From positions 34,148-98,147 of the forward strand of contig CAYMYO010000002.1 in the NCBI GenBank assembly GCA_964394685.1: 64,000 nt of DNA, given 5' to 3'. This document shows, piece after piece, positions 6,552-63,395 of this stretch. The notes beneath the pieces are model-generated. The model did not search any database. It saw only the letters and a program-made list of their open reading frames with translations, and was not told the origin of the DNA. This DNA is from an uncultured Gammaproteobacteria bacterium (lineage in GTDB: Bacteria > Patescibacteriota > Microgenomatia > UBA10105 > UBA927). A program made the position numbers and the translations under genes. How positions within the stretch are numbered: the first letter of the stretch is position 1; every line of letters starts with the position of its first letter.

Positions 6552-6623
6552 GCGCCTGTAGCTCACCGGTAGAGCACCACTCTTATAAAGTGGGGGTACC
6601 TGGCTCGACACCAGGCAGGCGCA
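6552..6623 (+). tRNA. tRNA-Ile with anticodon UAU (reads AUA); no encoded CCA
   Basis: Hand-folded cloverleaf: acceptor GCGCCTG/CAGGCGC (7 bp), D arm GCTC-ACCGGTA-GAGC, anticodon stem CCACT/AGTGG with loop CTTATAA (U33, anticodon TAT at 6584-6586, A37), 5-nt variable loop, T arm CCTGG-CTCGACA-CCAGG, discriminator A. Confidence 0.65.
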
Positions 6624-6673
6624 CAAAAATAAAATAGATTAGATTACCGTATCTAACAAAGTAAAATAATACT

Positions 6674-8334: not shown

Positions 8335-8889
8335 ATGGAACAGGTCATACTCGTTGATGAGGAAAATAATCAAATCGGTATTGCTGATAAAGAAACCGTG
8401 CACACAAAAAATACTCCGCTTCATCGTGCGTTCTCGTTGTTTCTTTTTAATTCCAAAAAACAACTTCTTGTAACACAACGCGCATTAAATAAGAAAACAT
8501 TTCCGGGAGTGTGGACTAATAGCGTGTGCGGACATGTGTCTCTGGGCGAAGCCGCGTTTGACGCGGTGAAACGAAGATTAAGTGATGAGTTACATGTTGT
8601 TGCTACGGATATAAAAGAAGTTTCTCCGTATCGCTACCGGTTTGCAGATGTAAACGGTGTTGTTGAAAATGAAATCTGTCCTATTTTTATCGGATTTACT
8701 AACGAAGATCCAAAACCAAGTAAGAGTGAAGTAGAAGCATGGAAATGGGTTGGTTGGAGCGAATTTTTGAAAACAGTTAAAGAACATCCCGGAACCTATT
8801 CACCGTGGAGCGAAGAAGAAGCGGTTATACTGAACAATTGTCATCCTGAACTCGTTTCAGGATCCCAGCCGCTTTCAGATGGATGCTGA
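8335..8889 (+). CDS. idi: isopentenyl-diphosphate delta-isomerase, type 1 (Nudix)
   Basis: HRAFSLFLFN...LLVTQRALNKKTFPGVWTNSVCGH matches the IDI-1 signature; the last ~18 aa (NNCHPELVSGSQPLSDGC) and the stop are encoded by the repeat element at 8838-8908. Confidence 0.75.
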   Translation: MEQVILVDEENNQIGIADKETVHTKNTPLHRAFSLFLFNSKKQLLVTQRALNKKTFPGVWTNSVCGHVSLGEAAFDAVKRRLSDELHVVATDIKEVSPYRYRFADVNGVVENEICPIFIGFTNEDPKPSKSEVEAWKWVGWSEFLKTVKEHPGTYSPWSEEEAVILNNCHPELVSGSQPLSDGC

Positions 8890-8908
8890 AATAAATTCAG
8901 CATGACAA
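8838..8908. mobile_element. 70-bp twin-hairpin TIR element (family 1), copy 1, between convergent idi and tsaD
   Basis: TTGTCAT-[ATCCTGAA-ctcgt-TTCAGGAT]-cccagccgctttcagatgg-[ATGCTGAA-ataaa-TTCAGCAT]-GACAA; terminal inverted repeats TTGTCAT/ATGACAA. Confidence 0.6.
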
Positions 8909-8915
8909 ACGGCTT

Positions 8916-9971
8916 TCATACTTCAACGGATAAATCCGGAACTGCTTCGATAGTGTGCCAGTTAACAGGAGTTCCACGGAAGAATGCATAGCTTCCAATA
9001 TATGCGGCGTTATCCGTGCAGAGCGCGACGGGAGGGCAATGGAAATTAAAAGGTAATTTCTGAAACTTTTTACGAAGTCTTAGATTTGCAGCAACACCGC
9101 CGCCAATTAAAATCGATGAAGCGTTATGCAATTCAGCTGCTTTTATTGTTTTTGCTACCAATACATCAGTAATTGCTTCTTGGACTTCATACGCAAATTC
9201 ACTTTGCAATACTTTTTCTGATTTGGATCCTGAAACAAGTTCAGGATGACAAGCATGCCATGTTCTCATGATTGCAGTTTTGAGTCCTGAAAACGAAAAA
9301 TTGAGTGTATCGTCATGAAGGAGTGGGCGGGGTAATTGTATTTTGTATTTAGTATTTTGTATTTTGTATAACGAGGCAGATTCTTGGATTGCGAGACCTC
9401 CTCGGGAACCAAATCCCAAAAGCCGGGCAGTTTTGTCAAACGCCTCTCCAGCTGCATCATCAATAGTTCCTCCGAGCCATTTCAATTCTTTAACACTATT
9501 CATGAGAAATAGTTCTGTGTGTCCACCTGAGACAACAAGACCGATTGCTGGAAATGCAATTGGACAGTCCCTCGACTTCGCTCGGGACGAATTTTCATTC
9601 GAAGACGAAAGAAAATTCGCATACAAATGAGCAAGAACATGATTAACTGGAATAAGAGGTTTTTTGGTCACATATGCAATTGTTTTAGCAGTTTCAACAC
9701 CAATAAGAAGTGATCCGATGAGTCCCGGACCGATGGTAACTGCAATTGCGTCAATTGAATCATACATGAGATGAGCTTCTTCCAACGCTTCTTGAATCGT
9801 CGGGAGAATACATTTTAATTGTTCCCGCGATGCTACTTCCGGTACAATCCCGCCATATTTTTCATGCATGGCAGAAGATGATGCTATGACATTACTTAGA
9901 ATTGTTGTTCCGTCTTTTATAACAGCAGAAGCTGTTTCATCACAGGATGATTCAATTGCGAGTATGGTCAT
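8916..9971 (-). CDS. tsaD: tRNA N6-adenosine threonylcarbamoyltransferase TsaD (Kae1/YgjD family) with three in-frame repeat-derived insertions
   Basis: MTILAIESSCDETASAV, VSGGHTEL and FSFSGLKT motifs; extra loops SSSNENSSRAKSRDC, KIQNTKYKIQ and ACHPELVSGSKSEKV are encoded by repeat sequences. Confidence 0.8.
   Translation of the reverse strand: MTILAIESSCDETASAVIKDGTTILSNVIASSSAMHEKYGGIVPEVASREQLKCILPTIQEALEEAHLMYDSIDAIAVTIGPGLIGSLLIGVETAKTIAYVTKKPLIPVNHVLAHLYANFLSSSNENSSRAKSRDCPIAFPAIGLVVSGGHTELFLMNSVKELKWLGGTIDDAAGEAFDKTARLLGFGSRGGLAIQESASLYKIQNTKYKIQLPRPLLHDDTLNFSFSGLKTAIMRTWHACHPELVSGSKSEKVLQSEFAYEVQEAITDVLVAKTIKAAELHNASSILIGGGVAANLRLRKKFQKLPFNFHCPPVALCTDNAAYIGSYAFFRGTPVNWHTIEAVPDLSVEV
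9225..9252. repeat. half copy of the family-1 element (hairpin A plus ATGACAA terminus) inside tsaD
   Basis: GGATCCTGAAacaagTTCAGGATGACAA; translated in-frame on the minus strand as CHPELVSGS. Confidence 0.55.
9338..9369. repeat. GTATTTT heptamer tandem repeat (about 4.5 units) inside tsaD
   Basis: gtattttgtatttagtattttgtattttgtat; encodes KIQNTKYKIQ on the minus strand; same array at 38289-38327. Confidence 0.6.
9566..9601. repeat. hairpin repeat family 4 (TCCCGAGCGRAGTCGAGGGA, R = a/g) inside tsaD
   Basis: The reverse complement of gtccctcgacttcgctcgggac is near-identical to the intergenic atcccgagcggagtcgagggatt at 17498-17520; followed by the palindrome cgaattttcattcg. Confidence 0.5.
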
Positions 9972-27236: not shown

Positions 27237-28007
27237 TTATATCTTAAACAATGTTTGAGTGTTTTTTGTTGTTTGTTCTTCCACTTGTTTGACAGAAATA
27301 TTTTGTAGTTCTGCGATTGTTTTTGTAATAAGCGGGATATATTTCGGTTCATTGCGCTGTCCGCGATGTCCAGCAGGGGGTAAAAGCGGCGCATCGGTTT
27401 CCAGAAGAATCATAGAAAGAGGAATGGATGGAATGACGAGTTTGAGCTGTTTGGAATATGTTGCATTTCCGTCAAGACCTAAGAACAATCCTCGTTTTTC
27501 AATTTCCCTGACATCTGCAAGGCCTCCGGAAAAACAATGAAATACACCCTTCGGTATCGTTGGCAAGCTGTCAAGAACGTCAAATGCATCCGCGAAAGCG
27601 TCCCGGCAATGAATAATAACCGGCAGGTTATATTTGAGAGCCAGCAGTAGTTGTGCTTCAAACAATTGTTTTTGTTCTGTCTTTCTGCCAACAGCAGGAA
27701 AGTCTTCATATACATGATAATCCAGTCCGCACTCGCCGATGGCAACAATATTATTATGTGTAATTATTAATCGTTCTAAATCATGAGTATCTGGATTTCT
27801 TGTTATCTCATATGGATGAATTCCAACTGCCGGAAATACTACGTTTGGATATTGTTTTGAAAGTTCGATTGCCTGTTTTGATGTAACAACGCTATTTCCG
27901 GGATTAATAAACTTTTTTACTCCTACTTTTTTAGCATTGCCGATAACCATGGCACGGTCTTCGTCAAATTCTTTGAAGTTCAAATGACAGTGGGTATCGA
28001 TGTACAT
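27237..28007 (-). CDS. tatD: TatD family metal-dependent DNase/hydrolase
   Basis: MYIDTHCHLNF...GECGLDY...ETDAP motifs. Confidence 0.8.
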   Translation of the reverse strand: MYIDTHCHLNFKEFDEDRAMVIGNAKKVGVKKFINPGNSVVTSKQAIELSKQYPNVVFPAVGIHPYEITRNPDTHDLERLIITHNNIVAIGECGLDYHVYEDFPAVGRKTEQKQLFEAQLLLALKYNLPVIIHCRDAFADAFDVLDSLPTIPKGVFHCFSGGLADVREIEKRGLFLGLDGNATYSKQLKLVIPSIPLSMILLETDAPLLPPAGHRGQRNEPKYIPLITKTIAELQNISVKQVEEQTTKNTQTLFKI

Positions 28008-28017
28008 ACTTTTTTCC

Positions 28018-28088
28018 TTGTCATGCTGAATTTATTTCAGCATCTATTTAAAAACTAACGGGATCCCGAAACGAGTTCGGGATGACAA
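28018..28088. mobile_element. 70-bp twin-hairpin TIR element (family 1), copy 2, inverted orientation, exactly between the metG stop and the tatD start
   Basis: TTGTCAT-[GCTGAA-tttat-TTCAGC]ATC-tatttaaaaactaacg-[GGATCCCGAA-acgag-TTCGGGAT]-GACAA. Confidence 0.6.
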
Positions 28089-28089
28089 T

Positions 28090-29517
28090 TTATGCAATCC
28101 TCGGGAACAACGGCGGTTGAGATGTAACCGTTGGTCCTTTAAATTGTTTCAATATCTTTTCGGCAGTTTCCGGAAGAAATGGTTGTAATGCGTCGACAAT
28201 CATTTGAATGTCATCAACCAATCCTTTAAGAATTGTAATTAATTCTTTTCCCTGTTTTTCCCATGGTTTTGTATCGTTAATTTGTTTATCAACTCTTTTT
28301 AGATGAGCCCAAATATATTCTAGTGCTTGGTCAAATAGGAAGTTGTCCAAGTATTTTTTGGTATTGCCAGAGTGACTTTTGTAAAAATTAGGTTGATAAA
28401 CAGGAATTGTTAGTTTTGCCGATTCGCATAATTTAGCAACGCGCGAAACTAAATTTCCAAGACCATTGGCGAGGTCTGCATTATAAAGTTCTTTAAATCT
28501 GCGTTCGGAAAAATCACCATCATCATATGCCGGTATTTCCCGAAGGAGATAATACCGCAGAGCATCGGTTCCATATTTTTTTACAAGTTCATATGGATCA
28601 ATAACATTGCCAAGACTTTTACTTATTTTTTGTCCGTCAACCGAGATAAATCCGTGAATAAATATTTGTTTTGATGGCGGGAGTCCGGCTGAAAAAAGCA
28701 TTGATTGCCAGATAGCTGATTGTTGCCGCAGATTATCTTTGCCGGCAAATTGTACAACTGGCCACCATGATTCAAATGTTTTTACATCATTTGGCCAACC
28801 GATTGCAGAAATATAATTAATAAGCGCATCGAACCACACATACATGACATGATCTGGATCATCTGGTACGTCGATTCCCCATGGCATCTTACTTTTTAAT
28901 CGGGAAATACTGAAATCCTGAAGTCCTTTCCCAACAAATTCCGTTATTTCTTTTTGCCTATATGCTGGAATGACAAATTGTGGATTATTTTTATAAAGTT
29001 TTAATAATTTATCTTGATAGTTGGAAAATTTAAAGAAATAATTTTCTTCTTCAATGATTTCTAAATCCCGATTGGGATGAAGTGGACATCGCCCGTCAAC
29101 CAGCTCTGAATCCGTTTTTTCCAGTTCACATCCGACACAATATTTTGTTTTATAGTTTTTTTTGTATATGTCTCCGTTTTTATTGCATTTTTTCCAAAAT
29201 TTTTGAGCAGCATCTACGTGTTTAGGATCAGTAGTTCGAATAAAACTATTGTAACTAAGATTAAATGCTTGTTTGAGATCATCAAATTTTGCTGCATATT
29301 CATCACAATATGCTTTCGGATCTTTTTTAACCTCAATTGCTTTATCGTATATTTTTTTCCCATGTTCATCTGTACCAAAGTTAAAAAACACTGCATCACC
29401 AAGTAACCTGTGATAGCGTGCAATGACATCTGCCTGCACGATTTCCAATGCAAATCCGATATGCGGTGCAGCATTAACATACGGCAGAGTAGTGGTGAGA
29501 TAGAATTTTTTCTTCAT
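28090..29517 (-). CDS. metG: methionyl-tRNA synthetase (core enzyme without the C-terminal tRNA-binding domain)
   Basis: HIGH-type motif PYVNAAPHIGFA, GTDEHGKKI, KMSKS motif KISKSLGNVIDP, zinc knuckle CVGCE...CPLH. Confidence 0.8.
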   Translation of the reverse strand: MKKKFYLTTTLPYVNAAPHIGFALEIVQADVIARYHRLLGDAVFFNFGTDEHGKKIYDKAIEVKKDPKAYCDEYAAKFDDLKQAFNLSYNSFIRTTDPKHVDAAQKFWKKCNKNGDIYKKNYKTKYCVGCELEKTDSELVDGRCPLHPNRDLEIIEEENYFFKFSNYQDKLLKLYKNNPQFVIPAYRQKEITEFVGKGLQDFSISRLKSKMPWGIDVPDDPDHVMYVWFDALINYISAIGWPNDVKTFESWWPVVQFAGKDNLRQQSAIWQSMLFSAGLPPSKQIFIHGFISVDGQKISKSLGNVIDPYELVKKYGTDALRYYLLREIPAYDDGDFSERRFKELYNADLANGLGNLVSRVAKLCESAKLTIPVYQPNFYKSHSGNTKKYLDNFLFDQALEYIWAHLKRVDKQINDTKPWEKQGKELITILKGLVDDIQMIVDALQPFLPETAEKILKQFKGPTVTSQPPLFPRIA

Positions 29518-32778: not shown

Positions 32779-33723
32779 CTATTCTCTTTTTTTCAGCCAC
32801 TTAACAACAGTTTCTACTAGTTCATCTTCTCTTCCCAAAAAATTATGAACAGCATTTTTTATAACAAATGCACTGAAATCTTTTGAGGCAGTTCTTTCTC
32901 TAATAAGTTCTATAGCTTTTTTTTGTTCTATTCCTGTAGCTACATCATTCTCCGGATTAATCACGACGATAGGAAGTTTTATTTTGTTAAAATTTTTGTA
33001 TTCTTTCTCCGGATGCGTTCCGTTGAAAACAAAACAGTTATTGTTCGGATTTGTATAATTCCAGAAAGTAGCTGCAGAAATCGGACAATTACTCCAGAGA
33101 CGAATAGGCATTAAATCCTTTCCTTTTCCGTCGTCAATCATACGTTTGGCAATCAGAGAATATTTTGGCCAATCAGTGATGCTAGAGTCGAACTGATAAT
33201 GAACATCTGCGGTGGTTAATAAAATTATTTTCGACACCGGATGATCGGGAATATTTACTAAATAATAACAAATTTTGTGAGGACCCAAGCTGTGTCCTTG
33301 TAAAATAATTTCAGAATAACCTAAGTTTTGAACATAACTGATTACACCCTGAAGATCATATACAGAGTCTTCAAGAATATCGAACATTGAACCACCCTGT
33401 TCCCAAATGAAACCAGTTGAAGTTTTTTTAATTAGATCCGCCATATAATCATGTCCGCGATTGTTGAATGTAAGAAACGCATACCCGTTGCGCGGGTAAT
33501 TCTCTCCCATTATTGTTACAAAATGATTTTGAATAAAATGTCCTTCTTTTCCGTGGACATGAACTATTATTTTGTTAGATGGTTTTGGAGGTTCGAAAAG
33601 AATGCAATCGAGTTCGATACCGTCAGTAGAATACGTTTTGTGCAGGGTAACTTGAGAAGCATGATGAATTTTCATAATAGCAATTATAACATTTTTAGTT
33701 TTGCATCGTAATTTCATTGCCAA
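32779..33723 (-). CDS. alpha/beta hydrolase (paralog of 19551-20465)
   Basis: GHSLG nucleophile elbow; HVHGKEGHF...FNNRGHDY shared with the paralog. Confidence 0.55.
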   Translation of the reverse strand: MAMKLRCKTKNVIIAIMKIHHASQVTLHKTYSTDGIELDCILFEPPKPSNKIIVHVHGKEGHFIQNHFVTIMGENYPRNGYAFLTFNNRGHDYMADLIKKTSTGFIWEQGGSMFDILEDSVYDLQGVISYVQNLGYSEIILQGHSLGPHKICYYLVNIPDHPVSKIILLTTADVHYQFDSSITDWPKYSLIAKRMIDDGKGKDLMPIRLWSNCPISAATFWNYTNPNNNCFVFNGTHPEKEYKNFNKIKLPIVVINPENDVATGIEQKKAIELIRERTASKDFSAFVIKNAVHNFLGREDELVETVVKWLKKRE

Positions 33724-33761
33724 CTCAAATAATTTCTAACCGGTGCTATAATCGTTTAAGA

Positions 33762-36629
33762 ATGAAATCACTATCTTCGCAAGAAAGAATTTTAAATAAA
33801 GAACAGAGAAAAGCCGTTCGGTTTGGGAGTGGGCCGCTTTTGATTATCGCAGGCGCGGGCACCGGAAAAACAACAGTGATAACGGAACGGATCAAATATC
33901 TGATTTTATCTAAAAAAGCACATCCTCAAGAAATTCTCGCCCTCACGTTTACGGAAAAAGCGTCCCGAGAAATGGAAGAGCGGATTGATTTGGCAATGCC
34001 ATACGGAACCACACAAATGTGGATCTCAACATTTCATGCATTTTGCGACCGAATACTTCGAAATGAAAGTCTTGCGATAGGGCTGGATCCAAATTATAAA
34101 CTCATGGGGGAAGCAGAGACCATTCAGTTTTATAAAGATCATCTCTTTGATTTCACCTTATCGTATTTCCGCCCGCTCGGAAATCCGACGAAATTTATTT
34201 CCGGCATGCTCCAACATTTTAATAGGCTGAAAGATGAAGACATAGATCCGACTACATATATTTCCTGGGTACAGAAACAAAAAGCATTTGAAAGCGAGGA
34301 AAAGAATAAATACATAGAATTAGCCAACGCATACAGGAAATACGAAGAATTAAAAATAAAAGAGAGTGTGGTTGATTATTCGGATCTTATCGCTAATACT
34401 CTCAAATTATTCCGCTCACGTAAAAAAATTCTTGAGGGATACCAAAAACAATTTAAATATATTTTGATTGATGAATTTCAGGATACGAATATTGCGCAGA
34501 ACGAACTGGCAATCCTTTTAGCTGGCAAAAGGCAGAATCTTACCGTTGTTTTCGATGACGATCAAAGTATTTATAAATTCCGCGGGAGTTCAATGTCAAA
34601 TACCATGCAATTTACAAAACGATTCAAAAAGTCGAAGATTATTGTTCTCACCAAAAACTACCGTTCGAGTCAGGAAATTCTTGATAGGTCCTATGACCTT
34701 ATTCAGCATAATAATCCGGATCGGTTGGAGGTTGTTGAAAAAATAAATAAGAGACTTGAATGTATTCGAAGAGTAAACGGAGAAAAAATTGAAGTACTCT
34801 ATACAGAGCGGGTTGAGGATGAAGCGGAAGCGGTGGCAAAAGAAATTAAAAAAACGATTGAACACGGTAGTACTTACAAAGATATCGCGATTCTAGTGCG
34901 TGCGAACAATCACGCAGAACCATTTGTTCGGGCACTATCGAGAGCCGGTATTCCATATCAATTCTTAGGCCCCGGGCAGCTATTTAAGCAACCAGAAGTA
35001 AAAGACATCATCGCATATTTAAAAGTACTCTATGATATCCACGATAGTGTTGCCATGTACCGGGTGCTTACCATGGACGTATTCAAGATATCTCCTCGGG
35101 ATGTCGCTGAAATTGTCTCCTATGCAAAACAACACGCAATTTCCATTTTTTCAGCCTGTGAAGAACAACAAGAAAAGATTTTGACAGTAAAACCAGTGGT
35201 TGCGATGATTTATAAACATCTCGGGCTCATTAAAAACGAAACTGCTGGACAGATTGCCTATTACTTTTTACAAGAATCCGGATTATTAAAAGAATTTACC
35301 ACCATTGATACCACAAAAGAACAGCGTAAAGCTGAAAATATCGCAGCGTTTTTCGATAAACTCAAAACATATGAAGTTGATCACGATGACGCAAGTATCT
35401 TTCGTGTTGTTGACTGGCTTGATTTGTCCATGGATCTTGGAGAATCACCACGTGCTGTCAATTCCGATTGGAATGAGGTAGATGCGGTGAACATATTGAC
35501 AATCCATTCAGCAAAAGGTCTGGAATTCCCAATTGTATTTTTGGTCAACCTTGTAAGCGCCCGGTTTCCAACAAATGAGCGTCATGAACAAATTCCCATT
35601 CCTGACGAGCTTGTGAAAGAAATTCTTCCTGTTGGAGACTATCATCTTGAAGAAGAACGCAGACTTTTTTACGTCGGGATGACGCGGGCACGGGATATGT
35701 TATACATGACCGGAGCCCAGTTTTATGGTGACGGAAAACGCGAGAAAAAAATTTCACCATTCGTCGAAGAAGCGATAGGAGAAAAACCCTCCTTCTCCGC
35801 CAGCTGGCGGATTCGGGCGAGCAAGCAACTTTTTCTTATTGATTGGAAACAAGAAAAAGAATCACAGAAAAAAATAACTACACCTCCGGTATCGTATCTT
35901 TGGTATACACATATAGAATCATTTCGCAGGTGCCCCTTGCAATATAAATACCGGTACGTTATCAAAATCCCTGTTCCAACATCGGCGGTTCTTGGGTTTG
36001 GGGATATCATGCATAAAACCATGCAGGAGTTTTATCAACAAGTGATGAAAGGAAAACATCCGACAAAAGAAACGCTTCTTTTAATCTATGAAAATAAATG
36101 GTCCGCCAGTGGGCGGATTGGTTTTAAGATTGAAACATATGAAAAAGAAATGAAGAAACACGGTGAAGAACTTCTTAAAGAATATTTTGTAAAGGGATAT
36201 GACCAAAAAACTAAAACAATTGCAGTAGAACAGAGATTTAAGATTAAAATCTCAAACGAGATTACTCTTGGAGGAAGAATTGACAGAGTTGATAGAAAAC
36301 CTGACGGATCCTTGGAGATCATTGACTATAAAACAGGTGCTGCACCAAAAAAGCGAGATGTATCAGAAGATTTTCAGCTGTCTCTGTACGCGCTTGCGGC
36401 TACTGACAAAGGAGTGTTCGGAGAAATATCAGAGAATATCATGGTTTCATTTTATTTTTTCGAAGGTCAGGAGTGCATGAGCGCGACACGGTCAAAAGAA
36501 CAGTTAGAAAAAGTAAAAGATGAGATAGTGAGTACTGCACAGGCAATGGGAACAAGTGAATTTCAACCAACACAAGGAATGTACTGCGCGTTTTGTGAAT
36601 TCAGGCTTTTGTGTGAGGCGTGGAAGTGA
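33762..36629 (+). CDS. UvrD/PcrA-family helicase fused to a C-terminal PD-(D/E)xK Cas4/AddB-like Fe-S nuclease domain
   Basis: Walker A AGAGTGKTTV; helicase motifs DEFQDTN, VGMTRAR; C-terminal RRCPLQYKY...IDYKTG...CAFCEFRLLC is a four-Cys Cas4-like nuclease; ATG at 33762 preferred over TTG at 33717; contains the in-frame GC palindrome at 35797. Confidence 0.75.
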   Translation: MKSLSSQERILNKEQRKAVRFGSGPLLIIAGAGTGKTTVITERIKYLILSKKAHPQEILALTFTEKASREMEERIDLAMPYGTTQMWISTFHAFCDRILRNESLAIGLDPNYKLMGEAETIQFYKDHLFDFTLSYFRPLGNPTKFISGMLQHFNRLKDEDIDPTTYISWVQKQKAFESEEKNKYIELANAYRKYEELKIKESVVDYSDLIANTLKLFRSRKKILEGYQKQFKYILIDEFQDTNIAQNELAILLAGKRQNLTVVFDDDQSIYKFRGSSMSNTMQFTKRFKKSKIIVLTKNYRSSQEILDRSYDLIQHNNPDRLEVVEKINKRLECIRRVNGEKIEVLYTERVEDEAEAVAKEIKKTIEHGSTYKDIAILVRANNHAEPFVRALSRAGIPYQFLGPGQLFKQPEVKDIIAYLKVLYDIHDSVAMYRVLTMDVFKISPRDVAEIVSYAKQHAISIFSACEEQQEKILTVKPVVAMIYKHLGLIKNETAGQIAYYFLQESGLLKEFTTIDTTKEQRKAENIAAFFDKLKTYEVDHDDASIFRVVDWLDLSMDLGESPRAVNSDWNEVDAVNILTIHSAKGLEFPIVFLVNLVSARFPTNERHEQIPIPDELVKEILPVGDYHLEEERRLFYVGMTRARDMLYMTGAQFYGDGKREKKISPFVEEAIGEKPSFSASWRIRASKQLFLIDWKQEKESQKKITTPPVSYLWYTHIESFRRCPLQYKYRYVIKIPVPTSAVLGFGDIMHKTMQEFYQQVMKGKHPTKETLLLIYENKWSASGRIGFKIETYEKEMKKHGEELLKEYFVKGYDQKTKTIAVEQRFKIKISNEITLGGRIDRVDRKPDGSLEIIDYKTGAAPKKRDVSEDFQLSLYALAATDKGVFGEISENIMVSFYFFEGQECMSATRSKEQLEKVKDEIVSTAQAMGTSEFQPTQGMYCAFCEFRLLCEAWK
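35797..35810. repeat. GC palindrome type A (CCGCCAGCTGGCGG) inside the helicase-nuclease gene
   Basis: Perfect 14-bp palindrome translated as SASWR. Confidence 0.5.
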
Positions 36630-37574
36630 TTAATTCTTGTCATGCTGAACTCGTTTCAGCATCTGTCTGAAAACAGCTGGGATCCCGAAACAAGTTCGGG
36701 ATGACAAAATAGCTGAAATAGGGTAATAGAGTGAAGCTCCTCCAAAACCCTCTTTAAATTTCGTAAATCCTTTCCATTCGAAAAATTGCTTTGGCTTTCG
36801 TTCATCCCATACACCAATAAAGTCAAATACGGTACACTTTCGCTTTTTTCCAATTTTAAGCGCATGCCATATAAGAAGTGTCGGCGCAAATAGCCTTTTT
36901 CCTTCATGAGTTGCTCCAGCAATCCAATAAAACGCAGTGTTATTCCAAAATAGTAACAATATGCCGGCAACGACGCGATCAGTATTGGTTTTAGCAAGAA
37001 GAATCGTCGCGTGTTTTGGATAGAATAATTTCCAAAGACGGTCAATGCCATGCGTGGTAATGCCACCAAACATTCCCGCGCCCTTGGATTTAATAGCTAT
37101 TAAATCGTTAATATCATGAGACTCTACAATCGTAAGGTTATTTTTTTCCGCTTTCCGAACAGCCCTGCGTTTAGCAGATGTAAATTTGGAAAATAGTTCT
37201 TTTGTACTTCCTGATAGGTCAATAACAATAGTTTTCGTTGGAATAAATGGGGAAGTCATGATGTGAAAAAACTTCGAAAGAGATGAAAGATATTTATTAA
37301 ATTCTTCTTGCGATACATCTTCTTTCGGTTCAACACTTAGTTGAGTTACGCGGAGTTTTTTTAGTGTCATAACCATTTTTGGGAGATAGGGAAGATGTTC
37401 AGGTCGTTGAAGCTTTGCAAGAGTTCCAATGAGCGGAATGCGGCGGTAAAAAATAGCAGTGCCATCAATAGTCGCTACGTTCCAATGCAATGCTTTAATA
37501 TACGCTTGATAAAGAGAGGATTGTTGCAGTTCCATAATTTTTCTTGTCATCCCGAATTTATTTCGGGATCCCAT
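36630..37574 (-). CDS. FemABX-family peptidyl/aminoacyl transferase (peptidoglycan bridge formation), paralog 1
   Basis: GATHEGKRLFAPTLLIWHALKIGKKRKCTVFDFIGVW...WKGFTKFKEGFGG is FemABX/GNAT-like; the first 13 codons (MGSRNKFGMTRKI, start from the element's ATGACAA terminus) and the last 24 codons lie inside family-1 elements; the native start is probably MELQQ at 37535. Confidence 0.6.
   Translation of the reverse strand: MGSRNKFGMTRKIMELQQSSLYQAYIKALHWNVATIDGTAIFYRRIPLIGTLAKLQRPEHLPYLPKMVMTLKKLRVTQLSVEPKEDVSQEEFNKYLSSLSKFFHIMTSPFIPTKTIVIDLSGSTKELFSKFTSAKRRAVRKAEKNNLTIVESHDINDLIAIKSKGAGMFGGITTHGIDRLWKLFYPKHATILLAKTNTDRVVAGILLLFWNNTAFYWIAGATHEGKRLFAPTLLIWHALKIGKKRKCTVFDFIGVWDERKPKQFFEWKGFTKFKEGFGGASLYYPISAILSSRTCFGIPAVFRQMLKRVQHDKN
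36638..36707. mobile_element. 70-bp twin-hairpin TIR element (family 1), copy 3; translated as the C-terminal 24 aa and stop of fem paralog 1
   Basis: TTGTCAT-[GCTGAA-ctcgt-TTCAGC]-atctgtctgaaaacagctg-[GGATCCCGAA-acaag-TTCGGGAT]-GACAA; the minus-strand frame reads SSRTCFGIPAVFRQMLKRVQHDKN*. Confidence 0.6.
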
Positions 37575-37614
37575 CCGTTTTCAGATGGATGCTGAAACAA
37601 GTTCAGCATGACAA
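37545..37614. mobile_element. 70-bp twin-hairpin TIR element (family 1), copy 4, between the two fem paralogs
   Basis: TTGTCAT-[CCCGAA-tttat-TTCGGG]-atcccatccgttttcagatgg-[ATGCTGAA-acaag-TTCAGCAT]-GACAA; an extra partial hairpin-B arm (ttatttcagcatc) at 37626-37638 provides the KMLK* end of paralog 2. Confidence 0.6.
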
Positions 37615-37622
37615 TACACAAG

Positions 37623-38570
37623 TTATTTCAGCATCTTTAATATTCCCCATCTTATGGAATCAGTAATACAGTAAATACGATATAAGAAAGGCTTGAGAAC
37701 AAGATCATAAGATCCGACAAATTCAATAAGTTTTGGAGAAAAGCCCGCTTTAAACCTGTGGAATCCATACCACGGATCTTTTGGGTCTGGTCCGCCAGCT
37801 GGCGGAGGACCAATTGCTCCCCACAGATCAAATGCTTGAAGTCCTTTGGACTTTCCCCATTTTATTAATTCCCATAGTAACAGGTTTGGCGCCATAACTT
37901 CACGATGTTCCCTTAAAGATGCTCCGTATGGATAGTACATAACACCTTCGTGAATAAATATAACCCATGCGGCAACTATTATATTGTTATATTTGGCTGT
38001 CCACAGAGTTGCAATTCCAGCCTTGTGCATAATGTTCCACATTGTTCGTGTGTATGTTTCGTTGTGTGCATAAAATCCTTGTCTGCTTGTTGTTTCGTAA
38101 GAAAGCTTCATATAGGTTTCAAATGCATTCTCGCTATTATCTTCTTGGATTTTTACATTATATTTTTGGGCTATTTTTATGTTGTATCTTGTTTTTGGAT
38201 GCATGGCTTTCAGAAGGTCTTCCTCAGATTTTGTCAGATCAATCACAAACGTATATTTGGTAAATAGAGGATGATGACTGGGGATAAAGTATTTTGTATT
38301 TTGTATTTTGTATTTTGTATTTTGTATGACATTTGGCTCTATTTGTATAAATATTGCATGTTTTTGTTTTCCTAATAGTATTAATTCTTCTATCATCTTT
38401 TTTGTTGGGTTGGGGCCTTTGGGAAAAAAGCCAATAGTGAATGGAGTGTAAGGGATGCGGTGAAAAGAAATATACCAAGCATAGAGCTTCACAACATCGA
38501 CTCCCATTGCTTTTCTAAATTCTGCCCACGCTTTTGTTTGAAGTGGATGAGTCATAGTGATATTATACAA
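37623..38570 (-). CDS. FemABX-family peptidyl/aminoacyl transferase, paralog 2, with in-frame heptamer-repeat and GC-palindrome insertions
   Basis: Fem-like core (YAWYISFH..., MAPNLLLWELIKWGKSKGLQAFDLWG, FKAGFSPK); KYKIQNTKYKIQNTKY is encoded by (GTATTTT)n and PPAGGPDP by CCGCCAGCTGGCGG. Confidence 0.6.
   Translation of the reverse strand: MYNITMTHPLQTKAWAEFRKAMGVDVVKLYAWYISFHRIPYTPFTIGFFPKGPNPTKKMIEELILLGKQKHAIFIQIEPNVIQNTKYKIQNTKYFIPSHHPLFTKYTFVIDLTKSEEDLLKAMHPKTRYNIKIAQKYNVKIQEDNSENAFETYMKLSYETTSRQGFYAHNETYTRTMWNIMHKAGIATLWTAKYNNIIVAAWVIFIHEGVMYYPYGASLREHREVMAPNLLLWELIKWGKSKGLQAFDLWGAIGPPPAGGPDPKDPWYGFHRFKAGFSPKLIEFVGSYDLVLKPFLYRIYCITDSIRWGILKMLK
37792..37805. repeat. GC palindrome type A (CCGCCAGCTGGCGG) inside fem paralog 2
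   Basis: Perfect 14-bp palindrome flanked by ggt...aggacc; translated as PPAGG. Confidence 0.5.
38289..38327. repeat. GTATTTT heptamer tandem repeat (5.5 units) inside fem paralog 2
   Basis: (gtatttt)x5 + gtat; a similar flank ggggataaag...gtatgac compares with ggggtaattg...gtataac at the tsaD copy. Confidence 0.6.
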
Positions 38571-60471: not shown

Positions 60472-61539
60472 TTGTGTTCATGCTATTATAGAGGTATGTC
60501 TTTCCTGTCTGATCGATTGTCTACGTTACGAAAAAATCTAACTGATAAGCATATTCCACCAGAGCTCGATTTGCGGGTGAAAAGCTACTTTGAAGAAATT
60601 GAACGGTTGCAACAGGACATTGCAGCTCAGGTGCATATTGAACAACTTTTTGACTACATTGACTGGATTGTGAATCTTCCATGGAACGAGCGGACGCAAG
60701 ATGCAATCGATTTGACCAAAGCAAAAGAAATGCTTGATCATAATCATTTCGGTATGCAATCAGTGAAAGACAAGATTTTGGAATATTTAGCAGTATTAAA
60801 ATTAACACAAGACAAAAATATGCTTGCCCGGCGTGCCCCCATTCTTTGTCTTATTGGCTTGGTCGGGACCGGGAAAACAACCTTAGCAAAATCCATTGCC
60901 GATGCAATGGGACGAAAGTTCATCCGCGTTGCGTTCGGAGGATTATCAGACGCACTGGATTTAAGAGGTCAATCGCGGGTGCGTCCTGATGCGGAAATCG
61001 GACTCATTCTCAAAGGTCTTCGCTATGCAGGAAGCAAAAATCCGGTGATGCTTCTTGATGAAGTCGACCGCGTAGCTGAACATGCACGAGGCGATATCAT
61101 GGGAGTATTAATTGAGCTATTGGATCCGGAACAAAACCAAGCGTTTACCGATCATTATCTGGATTATCCGTTTGATCTTTCAGAAGTATTGTTTGTCGCA
61201 ACAGCCAACAACACCGCAAATATCTCAACAGCGGTACTGGACAGATTGGAAGTTATCCAAATGCCGTCGTATTCAGATACGGAAAAAATGACGATAGCCA
61301 AAGAGTATGTACTGCCGGAACTGTTACGCGCATCAGGGTTAACAAAAGAGAATCTGACCATTGATGATGGTATCTGGCCGAAACTCATCCGTCCTCTTGG
61401 GTACGACGCTGGAATAAGAAGCATCGAACGAACAATTAATGATGTGTGCCGTAAAGTGGCACGGATGATTGTCGAAGGAAAAGGAACAACATTCCATATT
61501 ACTGAAAGCAACATTAAAGAGTTTGTAGAAAGTTATTAA
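60472..61539 (+). CDS. Lon-type AAA+ ATPase module only (no N-terminal LON domain and no protease domain)
   Basis: Closely matches the Lon central region: LPWNERTQD...LDHNHFGMQSVKDKILEYLAV, Walker A LIGLVGTGKTTLAKSIA, MLLDEVD (Walker B), ELLDPEQNQAFTDHYL, ATANN, sensor-2 GIRSIER; ends at 355 aa where Lon would continue into the S-K protease domain. Confidence 0.7.
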   Translation: MCSCYYRGMSFLSDRLSTLRKNLTDKHIPPELDLRVKSYFEEIERLQQDIAAQVHIEQLFDYIDWIVNLPWNERTQDAIDLTKAKEMLDHNHFGMQSVKDKILEYLAVLKLTQDKNMLARRAPILCLIGLVGTGKTTLAKSIADAMGRKFIRVAFGGLSDALDLRGQSRVRPDAEIGLILKGLRYAGSKNPVMLLDEVDRVAEHARGDIMGVLIELLDPEQNQAFTDHYLDYPFDLSEVLFVATANNTANISTAVLDRLEVIQMPSYSDTEKMTIAKEYVLPELLRASGLTKENLTIDDGIWPKLIRPLGYDAGIRSIERTINDVCRKVARMIVEGKGTTFHITESNIKEFVESY

Positions 61540-61548
61540 TCTCGTTTT

Positions 61549-61618
61549 TGTCATGCTGAATTCATTTCAGCATCTATCTGAAATCGGCTGGGATCCCGAA
61601 ACAAGTTCGGGATGACAA
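61549..61618. mobile_element. 70-bp twin-hairpin TIR element (family 1), copy 5, flanked by a 16-bp perfect direct repeat
   Basis: TTGTCAT-[GCTGAA-ttcat-TTCAGC]-atctatctgaaatcggctg-[GGATCCCGAA-acaag-TTCGGGAT]-GACAA; GTAGAAAGTTATTAAT at 61525-61540 and again at 61626-61641. Confidence 0.65.
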
Positions 61619-61643: not shown

Positions 61644-63395
61644 ATGAAAAAATTTTTTCATTTTAAACAAAAAACACAAAAAAAAGTCTTTCAAGGCTCT
61701 TCTTTTCATGGGCAAATAACCGGCAAACAGTCAATTCGTATTGTTCCTATCGGAGGCTCCGGTAACGTGACGAAAAACATGTTTGCATATGAGCTTCGGT
61801 ATGACGGACTCGTTCGTGACATTCTTCTTGTTGACTGCGGCATCGGATTTCCTGATGCTGACATGTATGGAGTAGATCTGGTTATTCCCGATACCAGGTA
61901 TTTAATGGACAAAAAACAATATATCCGCGGACTGGTATTTACCCATGGGCACGATGATCACATAGGAGCAATTCCTTACATCTATCCAAAACTCGGGAAC
62001 ATCCCCATGTTTGCTCCTCCACTTGCTGCTGCATTTGCCAATGTAAAACTCAAAGAAGCAAAATTGCATGTGCGGGTGAAACCCATGCAATTTTCCGACA
62101 CCATTACCCTCGGACCATTCAAAATATCATTTATTAGAATGACGCATTCTGTACCTGACACATCACATCTTGTTATTGAAACGCCCATTGGTATTTTTTA
62201 CCACGGCAGTGATTTCAAATTTGATTTCGATCCGCTTGACGGGAAAAAATCAGAAATAGAGAAAATCAATGCTGTTGGGAAGCGGGGAGTTCTATGCATG
62301 CTGACCGATTGTTTGGGAAGCGAGCGGACAGGATTTACTCCGTCAGAGCAAAAAATCAGAGATGCGATTGAAAAGGAACTAGCAATGTGTCCAGGAAAAT
62401 TTCTATTCACCACGCAATCGAGCAACATTTCCCGTATCCAACTGGCTATTGATATCGCTTTAAAAAATAATAGAAAAATTGCATTTTTTGGAAGAAGTGT
62501 TAATAAGAATGTTGAAGAAGCAGTCAATCTTGGATACATGAAATTTCCCCGCGACATGATTGTGAGAGACCGCGATTTGAAAAAAATGCATCCGTCAAAA
62601 ATGTTTCTCATTGTAGCCGGTGCCCAGGGACAACCGGAATCCGCTCTTACTCGAATGGCAAATGACAATCACATGTATGTGACGATTGCCGAAGGGGATA
62701 CGGTGATGTATAGCGCAGACCCGATTCCCGGTAACGAAAACAGTATGAATACCGTTATCGATCAAATTTATCGGACTGGAGCGCGCGTTTCATATACCAA
62801 TATCACGGAAGATTTACATGTGTCCGGGCACGGAAGCCAAGGGGATCAAATGCTTCTTCTTTCCGCAGTTGGTCCGCAGTATATTTTCCCAGTCGGAGGA
62901 ACGTATCGGCATATGATGAATTACCGGACTATTGCCATGGAATGCGGATACAAAAAATCCCAGATTCTCATGCCGGAAGAAGGGGATATACTGGAGTTTA
63001 AAATTGGTCTTGCTCCTAAAATAGCTCAGCATATCACTCTTGAAAATATCATGGTTGATGGACTGGGAGTAGGGGACGTGGGAAGTGTCGTGCTACGGGA
63101 TAGGCAAACCATTGCCAATGAAGGAATCGTTGTTGTGGTTGTTCCTGTTGAAAAATCAACCGGACGGGTAACCAGTGAGCCTGATATTATTTCAAGGGGA
63201 TTTGTTTATATCAAAGAATCCGGAGAGCTTCTGGCACGAGCAAAAAAAGTGGTAAACGAATCTCTTCGGGTGAGGCATGGACATACCATGGACTGGCGCT
63301 TCATGCGCGAAATGATCGAAGATAACCTGCAAGGATTTTTGAAAAAAGAAACCGGCCGCCAACCTCTCATAGTGCCGGTCATATTGGAAGTGTAA
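61644..63395 (+). CDS. rnj: ribonuclease J (metallo-beta-lactamase/beta-CASP family)
   Basis: FTHGHDDHIGAIPY (HxHxDH), beta-CASP and C-terminal domains. Confidence 0.85.
   Translation: MKKFFHFKQKTQKKVFQGSSFHGQITGKQSIRIVPIGGSGNVTKNMFAYELRYDGLVRDILLVDCGIGFPDADMYGVDLVIPDTRYLMDKKQYIRGLVFTHGHDDHIGAIPYIYPKLGNIPMFAPPLAAAFANVKLKEAKLHVRVKPMQFSDTITLGPFKISFIRMTHSVPDTSHLVIETPIGIFYHGSDFKFDFDPLDGKKSEIEKINAVGKRGVLCMLTDCLGSERTGFTPSEQKIRDAIEKELAMCPGKFLFTTQSSNISRIQLAIDIALKNNRKIAFFGRSVNKNVEEAVNLGYMKFPRDMIVRDRDLKKMHPSKMFLIVAGAQGQPESALTRMANDNHMYVTIAEGDTVMYSADPIPGNENSMNTVIDQIYRTGARVSYTNITEDLHVSGHGSQGDQMLLLSAVGPQYIFPVGGTYRHMMNYRTIAMECGYKKSQILMPEEGDILEFKIGLAPKIAQHITLENIMVDGLGVGDVGSVVLRDRQTIANEGIVVVVVPVEKSTGRVTSEPDIISRGFVYIKESGELLARAKKVVNESLRVRHGHTMDWRFMREMIEDNLQGFLKKETGRQPLIVPVILEV

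Follow-up and report, generated by a model that had tools for sequence, protein, structure and literature searches.

The window analysed here, a 64-kb stretch (64,000 nucleotides) of contig CAYMYO010000002.1, carries five full copies of a 71-bp twin-hairpin element and one solo half-copy, set among the genes for a NUDIX (idi-like) protein, TsaD, TatD, MetRS, a UvrD/PD-(D/E)XK helicase, two FemAB paralogs (fem1 and fem2), a Lon-like AAA+ protein and RNase J. All five full copies lie at gene boundaries, and they occur in both orientations, spread over 53 kb. We consider it probable that these elements are the gene-less, non-autonomous form, similar to miniature inverted-repeat transposable elements (MITEs) or to REPINs (inverted doublets of repetitive extragenic palindromic, or REP, units), of a widespread selfish cassette encoding a GIY-YIG nuclease. 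On this account the window copies derive from such a cassette by loss of its open reading frame (ORF) and then multiplied as a unit.

The layout common to the five copies is TTGTCAT, a hairpin, a spacer, a second hairpin and GACAA. An earlier examination of these letters without database searches (the sequence-only reading) had reported 7-bp terminal inverted repeats; the symmetry exists but was understated, as each 27-bp end (TTGTCAT, hairpin and C) is an inverted copy of the other apart from a few stem positions. The two ends of each copy differ mainly at three stem positions. Hairpin A has the stem arms ATGCTGAA/TTCAGCAT and hairpin B either ATCCCGAA/TTCGGGAT or ATCCTGAA/TTCAGGAT, the latter being the compensatory variant carried by copy 1; in every window copy A reads GCTGAA and B reads CCCGAA or CCTGAA. 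The half-element pattern TTGTCATSCYGAA-N5-TTCRGSAT matches the window 11 times, where 100 dinucleotide-preserving shuffles give an expectation of 0.00. The five full copies account for ten of these matches, one at each end, the eleventh is the solo half-copy (9227-9252, minus strand), and all 11 hairpins carry the terminal-module consensus described below. The spacers of the five copies, which leave about 19 nt between the terminal hairpins, are homologous to each other, indicating that the 71-bp unit has multiplied as a unit.

Oriented alike, the 71-bp copies are 87% identical, and the five full copies, their conserved stems and their drifting loops and spacers were all found much as the sequence-only reading had described them, apart from a shift of one position in the coordinates of the last three copies (Table 1). 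All 21 stem pairs are intact in each of the five, with variation restricted to loops and spacer. The compensatory changes reported earlier reduce in the window to a single C-G to U-A event, in copy 1, which is not significant alone (reached in 102 of 500 shuffles). Folding each copy, as had been suggested, gave structures far better than those of shuffled sequences on both strands (z -3.7 to -6.7), the alternatives being two hairpins closed by a TTGTC/GACAA stem or one long hairpin; a third, central hairpin in the spacer is weakly supported and is not claimed. The public Logan contig SRR13723397 (L121, 2 kb; loci outside the window carry L numbers), whose TatD is identical to that of the window, begins inside copy 2 (L121 1-30); the repeat breaks short-read assembly of this organism.

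Judged by how its close homologs are named, the source belongs with the Microgenomates / Candidatus Gottesmanbacteria, of the candidate phyla radiation (CPR). DNA alignment to related Microgenomates contigs reveals copies 1, 3 and 4 as insertions of 84-92 bp relative to empty sites. The site of copy 1 is empty in L122 and L123 (TsaD orthologs 75-80% identical), where the NUDIX gene and tsaD converge and overlap; the insertion comprises the core and two flanks, one of about 8 nt (CTGAACAA) and the opposite one of about 11 nt (ACGGCTTTCAT), and ATACT stands at both junctions. The site of copy 3 is empty in L204-L207, where fem1 and the helicase gene overlap by 29 nt (L204-L206) or 23 nt (L207). 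Here the insertion is of 92 bp within the last fem1 codons and consists of AGCTATT, the core and GAATTAATCACTTC, with TTC as microhomology. At the site of copy 4, empty in L204, L206 and L207, the fem2 TAA directly abuts the fem1 ATG, and in the window 87 bp, with an 8-nt filler on each side, separate the two codons. At each of these three sites, 7-14 nt of unrelated filler lies on either side of the 71-bp core. We looked there for a filler sequence common to the copies and found none that was consistent, and no target-site duplication of fixed length was consistent across the three empty-site comparisons (ATACT, TTC and none).

Two of these insertions have remodelled the C-termini of proteins. 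NUDIX orthologs end in ...EEEAVILQRINPESLQ or ...IIDSLHILN, and the window protein ends in ...EEEAVILNNCHPELVSGSQPLSDGC, copy 1 supplying the tail and the stop codon. Fem1 orthologs (75-87% identical, 278-280 aa) start with MELQQS and mostly end in YPIS(M/T)L(H/R)K; the window Fem1 ends in YPISAILSSRTCFGIPAVFRQMLKRVQHDKN and is called with 13 extra N-terminal codons. The sequence-only reading had assigned both tails to the element and proposed ortholog alignment as the check; the alignment bears it out, neither tail being conserved protein sequence and both corresponding to insertions relative to empty sites (84-89 bp and 92 bp, respectively). Its view of the other Fem termini did not hold. 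The ...ILKMLK end of Fem2, which had been placed within the element, lies 8 nt outside it and aligns with the native MLHK or MLRK end of Fem1 orthologs. The first 13 codons of fem1, which had been read as element-derived and as starting at the ATG of the ATGACAA terminus, start at another ATG (37574) inside the element and are absent in all orthologs, whose MELQQS start corresponds to ATG 37535 of the window. This in-frame upstream extension to 37574 in copy 4 is an ORF-calling artefact of the insertion.

The claim that the elements always sit at gene boundaries holds for the five full copies but not for the solo half-copy, which the sequence-only reading had missed and which sits within tsaD without breaking its frame. 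Its translation, ...ACHPELVSGS..., adds seven residues (CHPELVS) to a variable loop; they are absent from the 19 closest TsaD orthologs examined, and their status as an insertion rests on protein alignment. The same protein has a second lineage-specific insertion of 11 aa (NSSRAKSRDCP; 9556-9590, minus strand), absent from 19 of 19 aligned orthologs and encoded by the small palindrome tcGTCCCgagcgaagtcgaGGGACtg, which has GTC...GAC ends and a stem of a different class. In L122 (5588-5622) a palindromic insertion, aGTCtcgcgaagcgagatcctgctccgcagGACt, encodes SRSEILLRRTG in another TsaD variable loop, and in L228 (2050-2100) cctgcctgccggcaaggcagg, with direct repeats of GTATCAAG around it, encodes LPAGKAGI, again in a variable loop of TsaD. 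In-frame hairpin insertions seem to be recurrent in this clade.

Hairpins of the same kind bound a small gene in other genomes. The full cassette consists of YGTCAT-(8-bp stem, 5-nt loop)-ATC, a GIY-YIG ORF of 90-100 aa and GAT-(hairpin)-ATGACR, and the series TTGTCAT-hairpin-ATC, ORF, GAT-hairpin-ATGAC is complete in L071, L079, L083, L084, L088 and L103; L015 holds the left half only, cut by the end of the locus. These seven loci belong to different phyla. The ORF encodes a GIY-YIG domain protein (PF01541) whose nearest solved structures are those of the UPF0213 proteins 1ywl and 1zg2, a group that constitutes the bacterial Slx1 family (PMC1564403). When ORFs lying no more than 1.5 kb from the hairpins were clustered across 120 genome loci, GIY-YIG was the sole protein family found to recur there, and no Y1-transposase-like family (RAYT, the REP-associated tyrosine transposase, or IS200) recurred there. 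L087 is an internally deleted cassette that joins the first 10 aa of the protein, out of frame, to its last 32 aa while retaining the two hairpins, and it provides a direct intermediate between full and empty forms. In addition, L071 has a cassette beside an empty twin with an identical hairpin pair, and the hairpin pair of the window itself (CCCGAA with GCTGAA) flanks GIY-YIG ORFs in L130 and L137. The distance between hairpin and ORF varies widely: upstream it runs from about 6 to 110 nt, and downstream from an overlap up to about 100 nt.

The protein of L137 matched at least 7,991 clusters in a protein database search. The best 120 of these, drawn from several phyla and mostly from short contigs, share 77-100% identity across the full 97 residues and are named only 'putative endonuclease' or 'GIY-YIG nuclease family protein'; between Nitrospirae, WOR-3 and Deltaproteobacteria the nuclease is still 77-85% identical. 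Such identity across phyla, together with the short contigs, is the pattern expected of an element that spreads horizontally in many copies. The nuclease frame often extends into the right hairpin, where the TGA within the terminal ATGAC ends it (L129, L140, L160; tails like ...DAETSSA), the element thereby supplying its own stop codon, and in L129 the frame reads through one hairpin into a second (...MPKQVRHDKKRDSEISSG). A separate observation concerns L088 (6874-7190), where the frame of the GIY-YIG gene contains a TGA, at a conserved position, ahead of the conserved C-terminal motif NWKDL, which suggests that this metagenome-assembled genome (MAG; isolate ELA653) reads UGA as a sense codon.

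The association between hairpin and nuclease was also examined in the reverse direction, at 80 metagenome loci chosen by GIY-YIG protein similarity alone (query, a 3-sequence alignment) and searched for a GTC-anchored hairpin within 150 nt upstream of the ORF, and its mirror image downstream. A left hairpin was present at 50 of 73 loci, a right one at 50 of 72, both at 37 of 65 and at least one at 53 of 65, compared with a chance rate of about 0.015 per 180-nt flank (10.4 hits of the same detector per 128 kb of shuffled sequence), the overall chance expectation being put at about 0.02-0.04 per flank. A test without a pairing filter agrees, a perfect 8-bp stem following 73 of 126 ORF-nearest GTCAY motifs versus 9 of 337 elsewhere. 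The stems covary strongly, across 31 distinct arms flanking GIY-YIG ORFs: at position 3 we counted 34 C-G, 30 U-A and 24 G-C pairs, at position 5, 48 U-A and 35 C-G, and stem pairing stands at 72.6% versus at most 63.9% with partners shuffled. It is this variation in other genomes that supplies real evidence of covariation, the window contributing its single event. Other stem classes, e.g. TTCCCGC-GAAG-GCGGGAA, flank the same GIY-YIG family. Where a locus holds further, dispersed hairpins, these have an arm identical to one of the local cassette in 30 of 65 cases, against 8.4 +/- 3.8 when permuted.

From 216 hairpins of loci selected by GIY-YIG similarity, the conserved terminal module was derived as Y-GTCAT-N-C-Y-G-A-A, a 5-nt loop and then ...AT-C(T). 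The 8-bp stem begins with the AT of GTCAT, the loop is of the types CTTGT, TTTAT or CTCGT, and ATC follows. A scan of one genome per species with the half-element pattern found the module in at least 120 species (at least 120 loci) of many phyla; hosts among the matches listed include Patescibacteria, Gamma-, Alpha- and Deltaproteobacteria, Bacteroidota, Ignavibacteria, Spirochaetes, Nitrospirae, Melainabacteria and Rickettsia endosymbionts, and cultured isolates such as Mesonia sp. HuA40 (L083) are among them. Counted as half-element hits rather than as elements, and with the window included, 80 are paired with a second hairpin and GAC no more than 150 nt away (the spacer having a median of 19 nt and a range of 1-98), a small ORF follows 6, and 61 stand alone. 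A scan of viral contigs gave only 20 stretches with the module, and hence no sign of phages as the main carriers.

Several further arrangements of the module were seen. In an Ignavibacterium MAG (L019 1480-1700), twin-hairpin elements stand in direct tandem with a constant 12-nt linker, resembling arrays of bacterial interspersed mosaic elements (BIMEs). The GTCAT-hairpin module and the GTCATTCCCGCGAAGGCGGGAAT class are present in a Rickettsia endosymbiont of Polydrusus (L023) and in Ca. Rickettsia vulgarisii (L082), and some Rickettsia palindromic repeats may belong to this hairpin superfamily. Just outside some cassettes, partial left arms, (T)GTCATCCTGAAC followed by 6-8 nt, recur about every 20 nt in arrays, and the CTGAACAA filler beside copy 1 looks like one such stutter; these arrays could be scars of slippage or abortive copying, or arrays of binding sites. 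The only tRNA in the window is a tRNA-Ile with anticodon TAT (6552-6624), an uncommon bacterial route to reading AUA, for which most bacteria use a lysidine-modified CAU tRNA.

Table 1. Twin-hairpin elements, element-derived coding segments and neighbouring genes in the window, with the partial-arm arrays of other loci (gene neighbours confirmed by Pfam).
Feature	Position	Strand	Context
Copy 1, full twin-hairpin element	8838-8908	- (hairpin A to B)	Between convergent NUDIX (idi-like) gene and tsaD
Whole inserted segment at copy 1 site	8829-8917		84-89 bp (DNA alignment to L122, L123)
Element-encoded NUDIX C-terminal tail and stop (CHPELVSGSQPLSDGC, stop)	8838-8889	+	Replaces native ...QRINPESLQ and stop
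Solo half-element (TTGTCAT + ATCCTGAA-CTTGT-TTCAGGAT + C)	9219-9255	-	In frame inside tsaD
Copy 2	28018-28088	+	Fills gap from metG stop (28090) to tatD start (28007); untranslated
Copy 3	36637-36707	+	Between UvrD/PD-(D/E)XK helicase stop (36629) and fem1 3' end
Fem1 C-terminal read-through (AILSSRTCFGIPAVFRQMLKRVQHDKN, stop)	36630-36713	-	Native last four codons (MLHK, stop) displaced
Native fem1 start codon (MELQQS...)	37533-37535	-	Start in all orthologs
Copy 4	37544-37614	-	Exactly between fem2 stop codon and fem1 start codon
Copy 5	61548-61618	+	Between Lon-like AAA+ stop (61539) and rnj start (61644); untranslated
Partial-left-arm arrays	L079 7190-7295, 7800-7965; L087; L105; L015; window 8830-8837		
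NUDIX (idi-like) gene	8335-8889		Pfam
TsaD	8916-9971	-	Pfam
TatD	27237-28007	-	Pfam
MetRS	28090-29517	-	Pfam
UvrD/PD-(D/E)XK helicase	33717-36629		Pfam
FemAB paralog fem1	36630-37574	-	Pfam
FemAB paralog fem2	37623-38570	-	Pfam
Lon-like AAA+ protein	60472-61539		Pfam
RNase J	61644-63395		Pfam

The probable derivation of the window elements from a GIY-YIG cassette draws on what was observed of their architecture, the two-way association, the deleted intermediate, the matching hairpin types, the insertion polymorphism, the two remodelled C-termini and the one in-frame insertion. Like the members of the cassette family, the window copies have two inverted modules with usually different stems (A and B); in place of a GIY-YIG ORF between the modules there is only a 19-nt spacer, which makes them non-autonomous members. 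We infer that the nuclease mobilises them. As it has no separate DNA-binding domain, and as eukaryotic Slx1 is a structure-specific nuclease (PMC1564403), we propose that the minimal GIY-YIG protein would recognise the terminal hairpin structure together with the invariant GTCAT/ATC flanks and cut there. Copies would then reach new sites through host repair (end joining or template switching), and cutting followed by repair would explain why the junctions have 7-14 nt fillers and microhomologies (ATACT, TTC) but no fixed target-site duplication. Selection in a compact CPR genome would spare only those insertions that fall at the boundary of a gene or in a protein loop tolerant of them.

A number of points weigh against this account. 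There is no GIY-YIG gene within the 64-kb window of the 181-kb source contig, and a nuclease acting in trans in this genome is a putative one. GIY-YIG enzymes hydrolyse DNA and are not known to carry out strand transfer, so that the nuclease alone would not suffice as a transposase. The three junctions, with fillers that differ and no consistent duplication, do not define the exact mobile unit, and the five copies, only 87% identical, may reflect activity that is old. On a given side, a hairpin went undetected in about a third of GIY-YIG loci, and the 80 loci of the reciprocal test are the closest relatives of hairpin-flanked queries, such that the association may be inflated for the family as a whole.

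The alternative that survives best, although we regard it as unlikely, reverses the order of events: the twin hairpins would be independent repeats, the GIY-YIG gene a free-standing homing gene that invades them, and the window copies unoccupied targets. The gene would enter by a cut in the spacer of an empty twin and be copied in by repair, the two hairpins serving as homology arms. GIY-YIG enzymes are classic homing endonucleases, and the cassette protein gives a match, albeit weak, to TIGR01453. The existence of cassettes and empty twins with the same ends, the excess of twin over cassette hits (80 versus 6 half-element hits) and a window that holds no nuclease gene speak for homing. Against this, the deletion in L087 shows that change from cassette to empty form does occur, and the variable distances between hairpin and ORF indicate no fixed insertion point in the spacer, both of which argue against invasion as the sole explanation; the protein also lacks the sequence-specific DNA-binding domain of the homing-enzyme kind. 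Homing would also leave the spread of twins to new loci unexplained, no other candidate gene recurring nearby at the 120 loci.

It is quite improbable, in our view, that the hairpins are host-functional structures, kept for an effect on RNA or DNA where genes meet (stabilising transcript ends, providing processing sites or insulating tightly packed genes from each other, for instance), with a regulatory link to the GIY-YIG gene. The placement of all five full copies exactly at gene boundaries, a very stable fold on both strands and stems that stay invariant while loops and spacer drift would all fit such roles, and REP elements of E. coli, which have secondary roles of this kind, offer a precedent. 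However, boundary location is expected anyway from purifying selection in a compact genome, and the same sites are empty in relatives with the same gene order, in which the structure is accordingly not required. TsaD is moreover interrupted, and other proteins are truncated and extended, by the insertions. No U-tract accompanies the hairpins, which are followed by GACAA or preceded by TTGTC; a scan for promoter and terminator consensus sequences found none at the elements, with no terminator-like site at copies 3 or 4; and the Rfam 15 covariance models gave only a tRNA at the gathering threshold in the window and chance-level hits at E up to 10, none of them a match to the elements.

Very improbable is a third possibility, that these are REP/BIME (REPIN) elements mobilised by a RAYT, an IS200-like Y1 transposase. 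Inverted pairs of short palindromes with two stem types do resemble the Y and Z REPs of BIMEs, and both tandem arrays (L019) and solo units exist; yet the conserved end is YGTCAT rather than the REP tetranucleotide GTAG, and at the 120 hairpin loci it is a GIY-YIG family that recurs and not a Y1-transposase-like one, the GIY-YIG ORF occupying the place of the RAYT between the repeats. Chance similarity or local tandem duplication, which has nothing in its favour except the two copies flanking fem1, is refuted by the 53-kb spread, by 11 matches versus 0.00 expected and by the presence of the module in at least 120 other species, in keeping with the dispersed MITE-like family that the sequence-only reading had proposed.

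Should the GIY-YIG cassette be the source of the window elements, GIY-YIG proteins inside hairpin-bounded cassettes, which a 2006 phylogenomic survey treated among bacterial Slx1-like proteins as vertically inherited putative repair factors (PMC1564403), would be recast as selfish elements. The YGTCAT hairpin is then a suggested natural substrate, and the biochemistry of the nuclease becomes directly testable, cultured hosts such as Mesonia sp. HuA40 being at hand. The elements would also offer a source for palindromic repeats that break metagenome assemblies, as in L121, and because they leave compact CPR genomes with spurious or changed protein ends and with in-frame insertions, they bear on gene calling and on how 'lineage-specific' protein extensions are read. 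More tentatively, and with somewhat more doubt than conviction, we suggest a pan-bacterial class of mobile elements whose sole protein is a Slx1-like structure-specific nuclease of about 95 aa acting on its own terminal hairpins, and whose abundant gene-less twins and solos colonise gene boundaries and protein loops. If this is true, it would represent a nuclease-driven counterpart of the REPIN-RAYT system, provide a function for the large UPF0213/'GIY-YIG nuclease family protein' group and give an origin for many short GTCAT...ATGAC palindromes scattered in bacterial genomes. The sequence-only reading could not tie the repeat to a described family. Neither the element nor a hairpin-flanked GIY-YIG gene was found described in the literature covered, which leaves out most subscription journals and so allows for a prior description; the tie to hairpin-bounded GIY-YIG cassettes is made here by sequence comparison, through shared ends and the two-way association.

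Compared with known systems, the greatest likeness is to REP/BIME/REPIN-RAYT elements, which likewise comprise single palindromic units, inverted doublets with two stem variants and tandem arrays, mostly extragenic. In both, one small nuclease-type gene lies between two units, gene-less doublets are far commoner, and the repeat type matches the associated gene within a genome. The differences are that the enzyme here is a GIY-YIG (Slx1-like) hydrolytic nuclease instead of an HUH Y1 transposase, that the conserved flank is YGTCAT...ATC instead of GTAG, and that the module is not lineage-specific but common to many phyla, with copies that enter coding sequence. IS200/IS605 elements and their derivatives, the palindrome-associated transposable elements (PATEs), also use end hairpins as recognition elements, make no target duplication and have gene-less, hairpin-only derivatives; however, both hairpins of IS200/IS605 act on the same strand and its ends are not inverted repeats, whereas those described here are two-fold symmetric, and its enzyme is a Y1 HUH transposase.

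The window elements have the terminal inverted repeats, the length below about 300 bp and the absence of an ORF that characterise classical MITEs, as well as a probable origin by internal deletion from an autonomous element with the same ends, represented by the full cassettes and L087. They differ in a parent that encodes a GIY-YIG nuclease and not a DDE transposase, and in having no fixed-length target-site duplication. The Correia/NEMIS MITEs of Neisseria are similarly short, non-coding, inverted at their ends, located at gene boundaries, sometimes co-translated and derived by internal deletion of a longer coding element. These have 26-bp terminal inverted repeats, a TA duplication and a length of about 100-155 bp, in contrast to the 71 bp, the hairpin at each end and the lack of a TA duplication seen here. 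Rickettsia palindromic elements (RPEs) are small palindromic repeats of a reduced genome that lie in frame in protein genes and are translated, as are the TsaD solo copy and the NUDIX and Fem1 tails. To our knowledge RPEs measure about 100-150 bp, against 71 bp here, and have no associated protein gene, and the likeness is one of behaviour alone, namely in-frame insertion. Free-standing GIY-YIG homing endonuclease genes (the seg genes of phage T4, I-TevI) share the catalytic fold, the form of a selfish single-gene unit and signs of horizontal spread. Unlike them, the gene described here encodes a minimal Slx1-like domain of about 95 aa without the DNA-binding extension for long target sites, carries structured inverted ends and leaves gene-less derivatives at non-homologous sites. 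Taken together, the pairing of hairpin and GIY-YIG gene is closest to REPIN-RAYT in its logic, to RPEs in its behaviour and to the GIY-YIG homing endonucleases in its enzyme.

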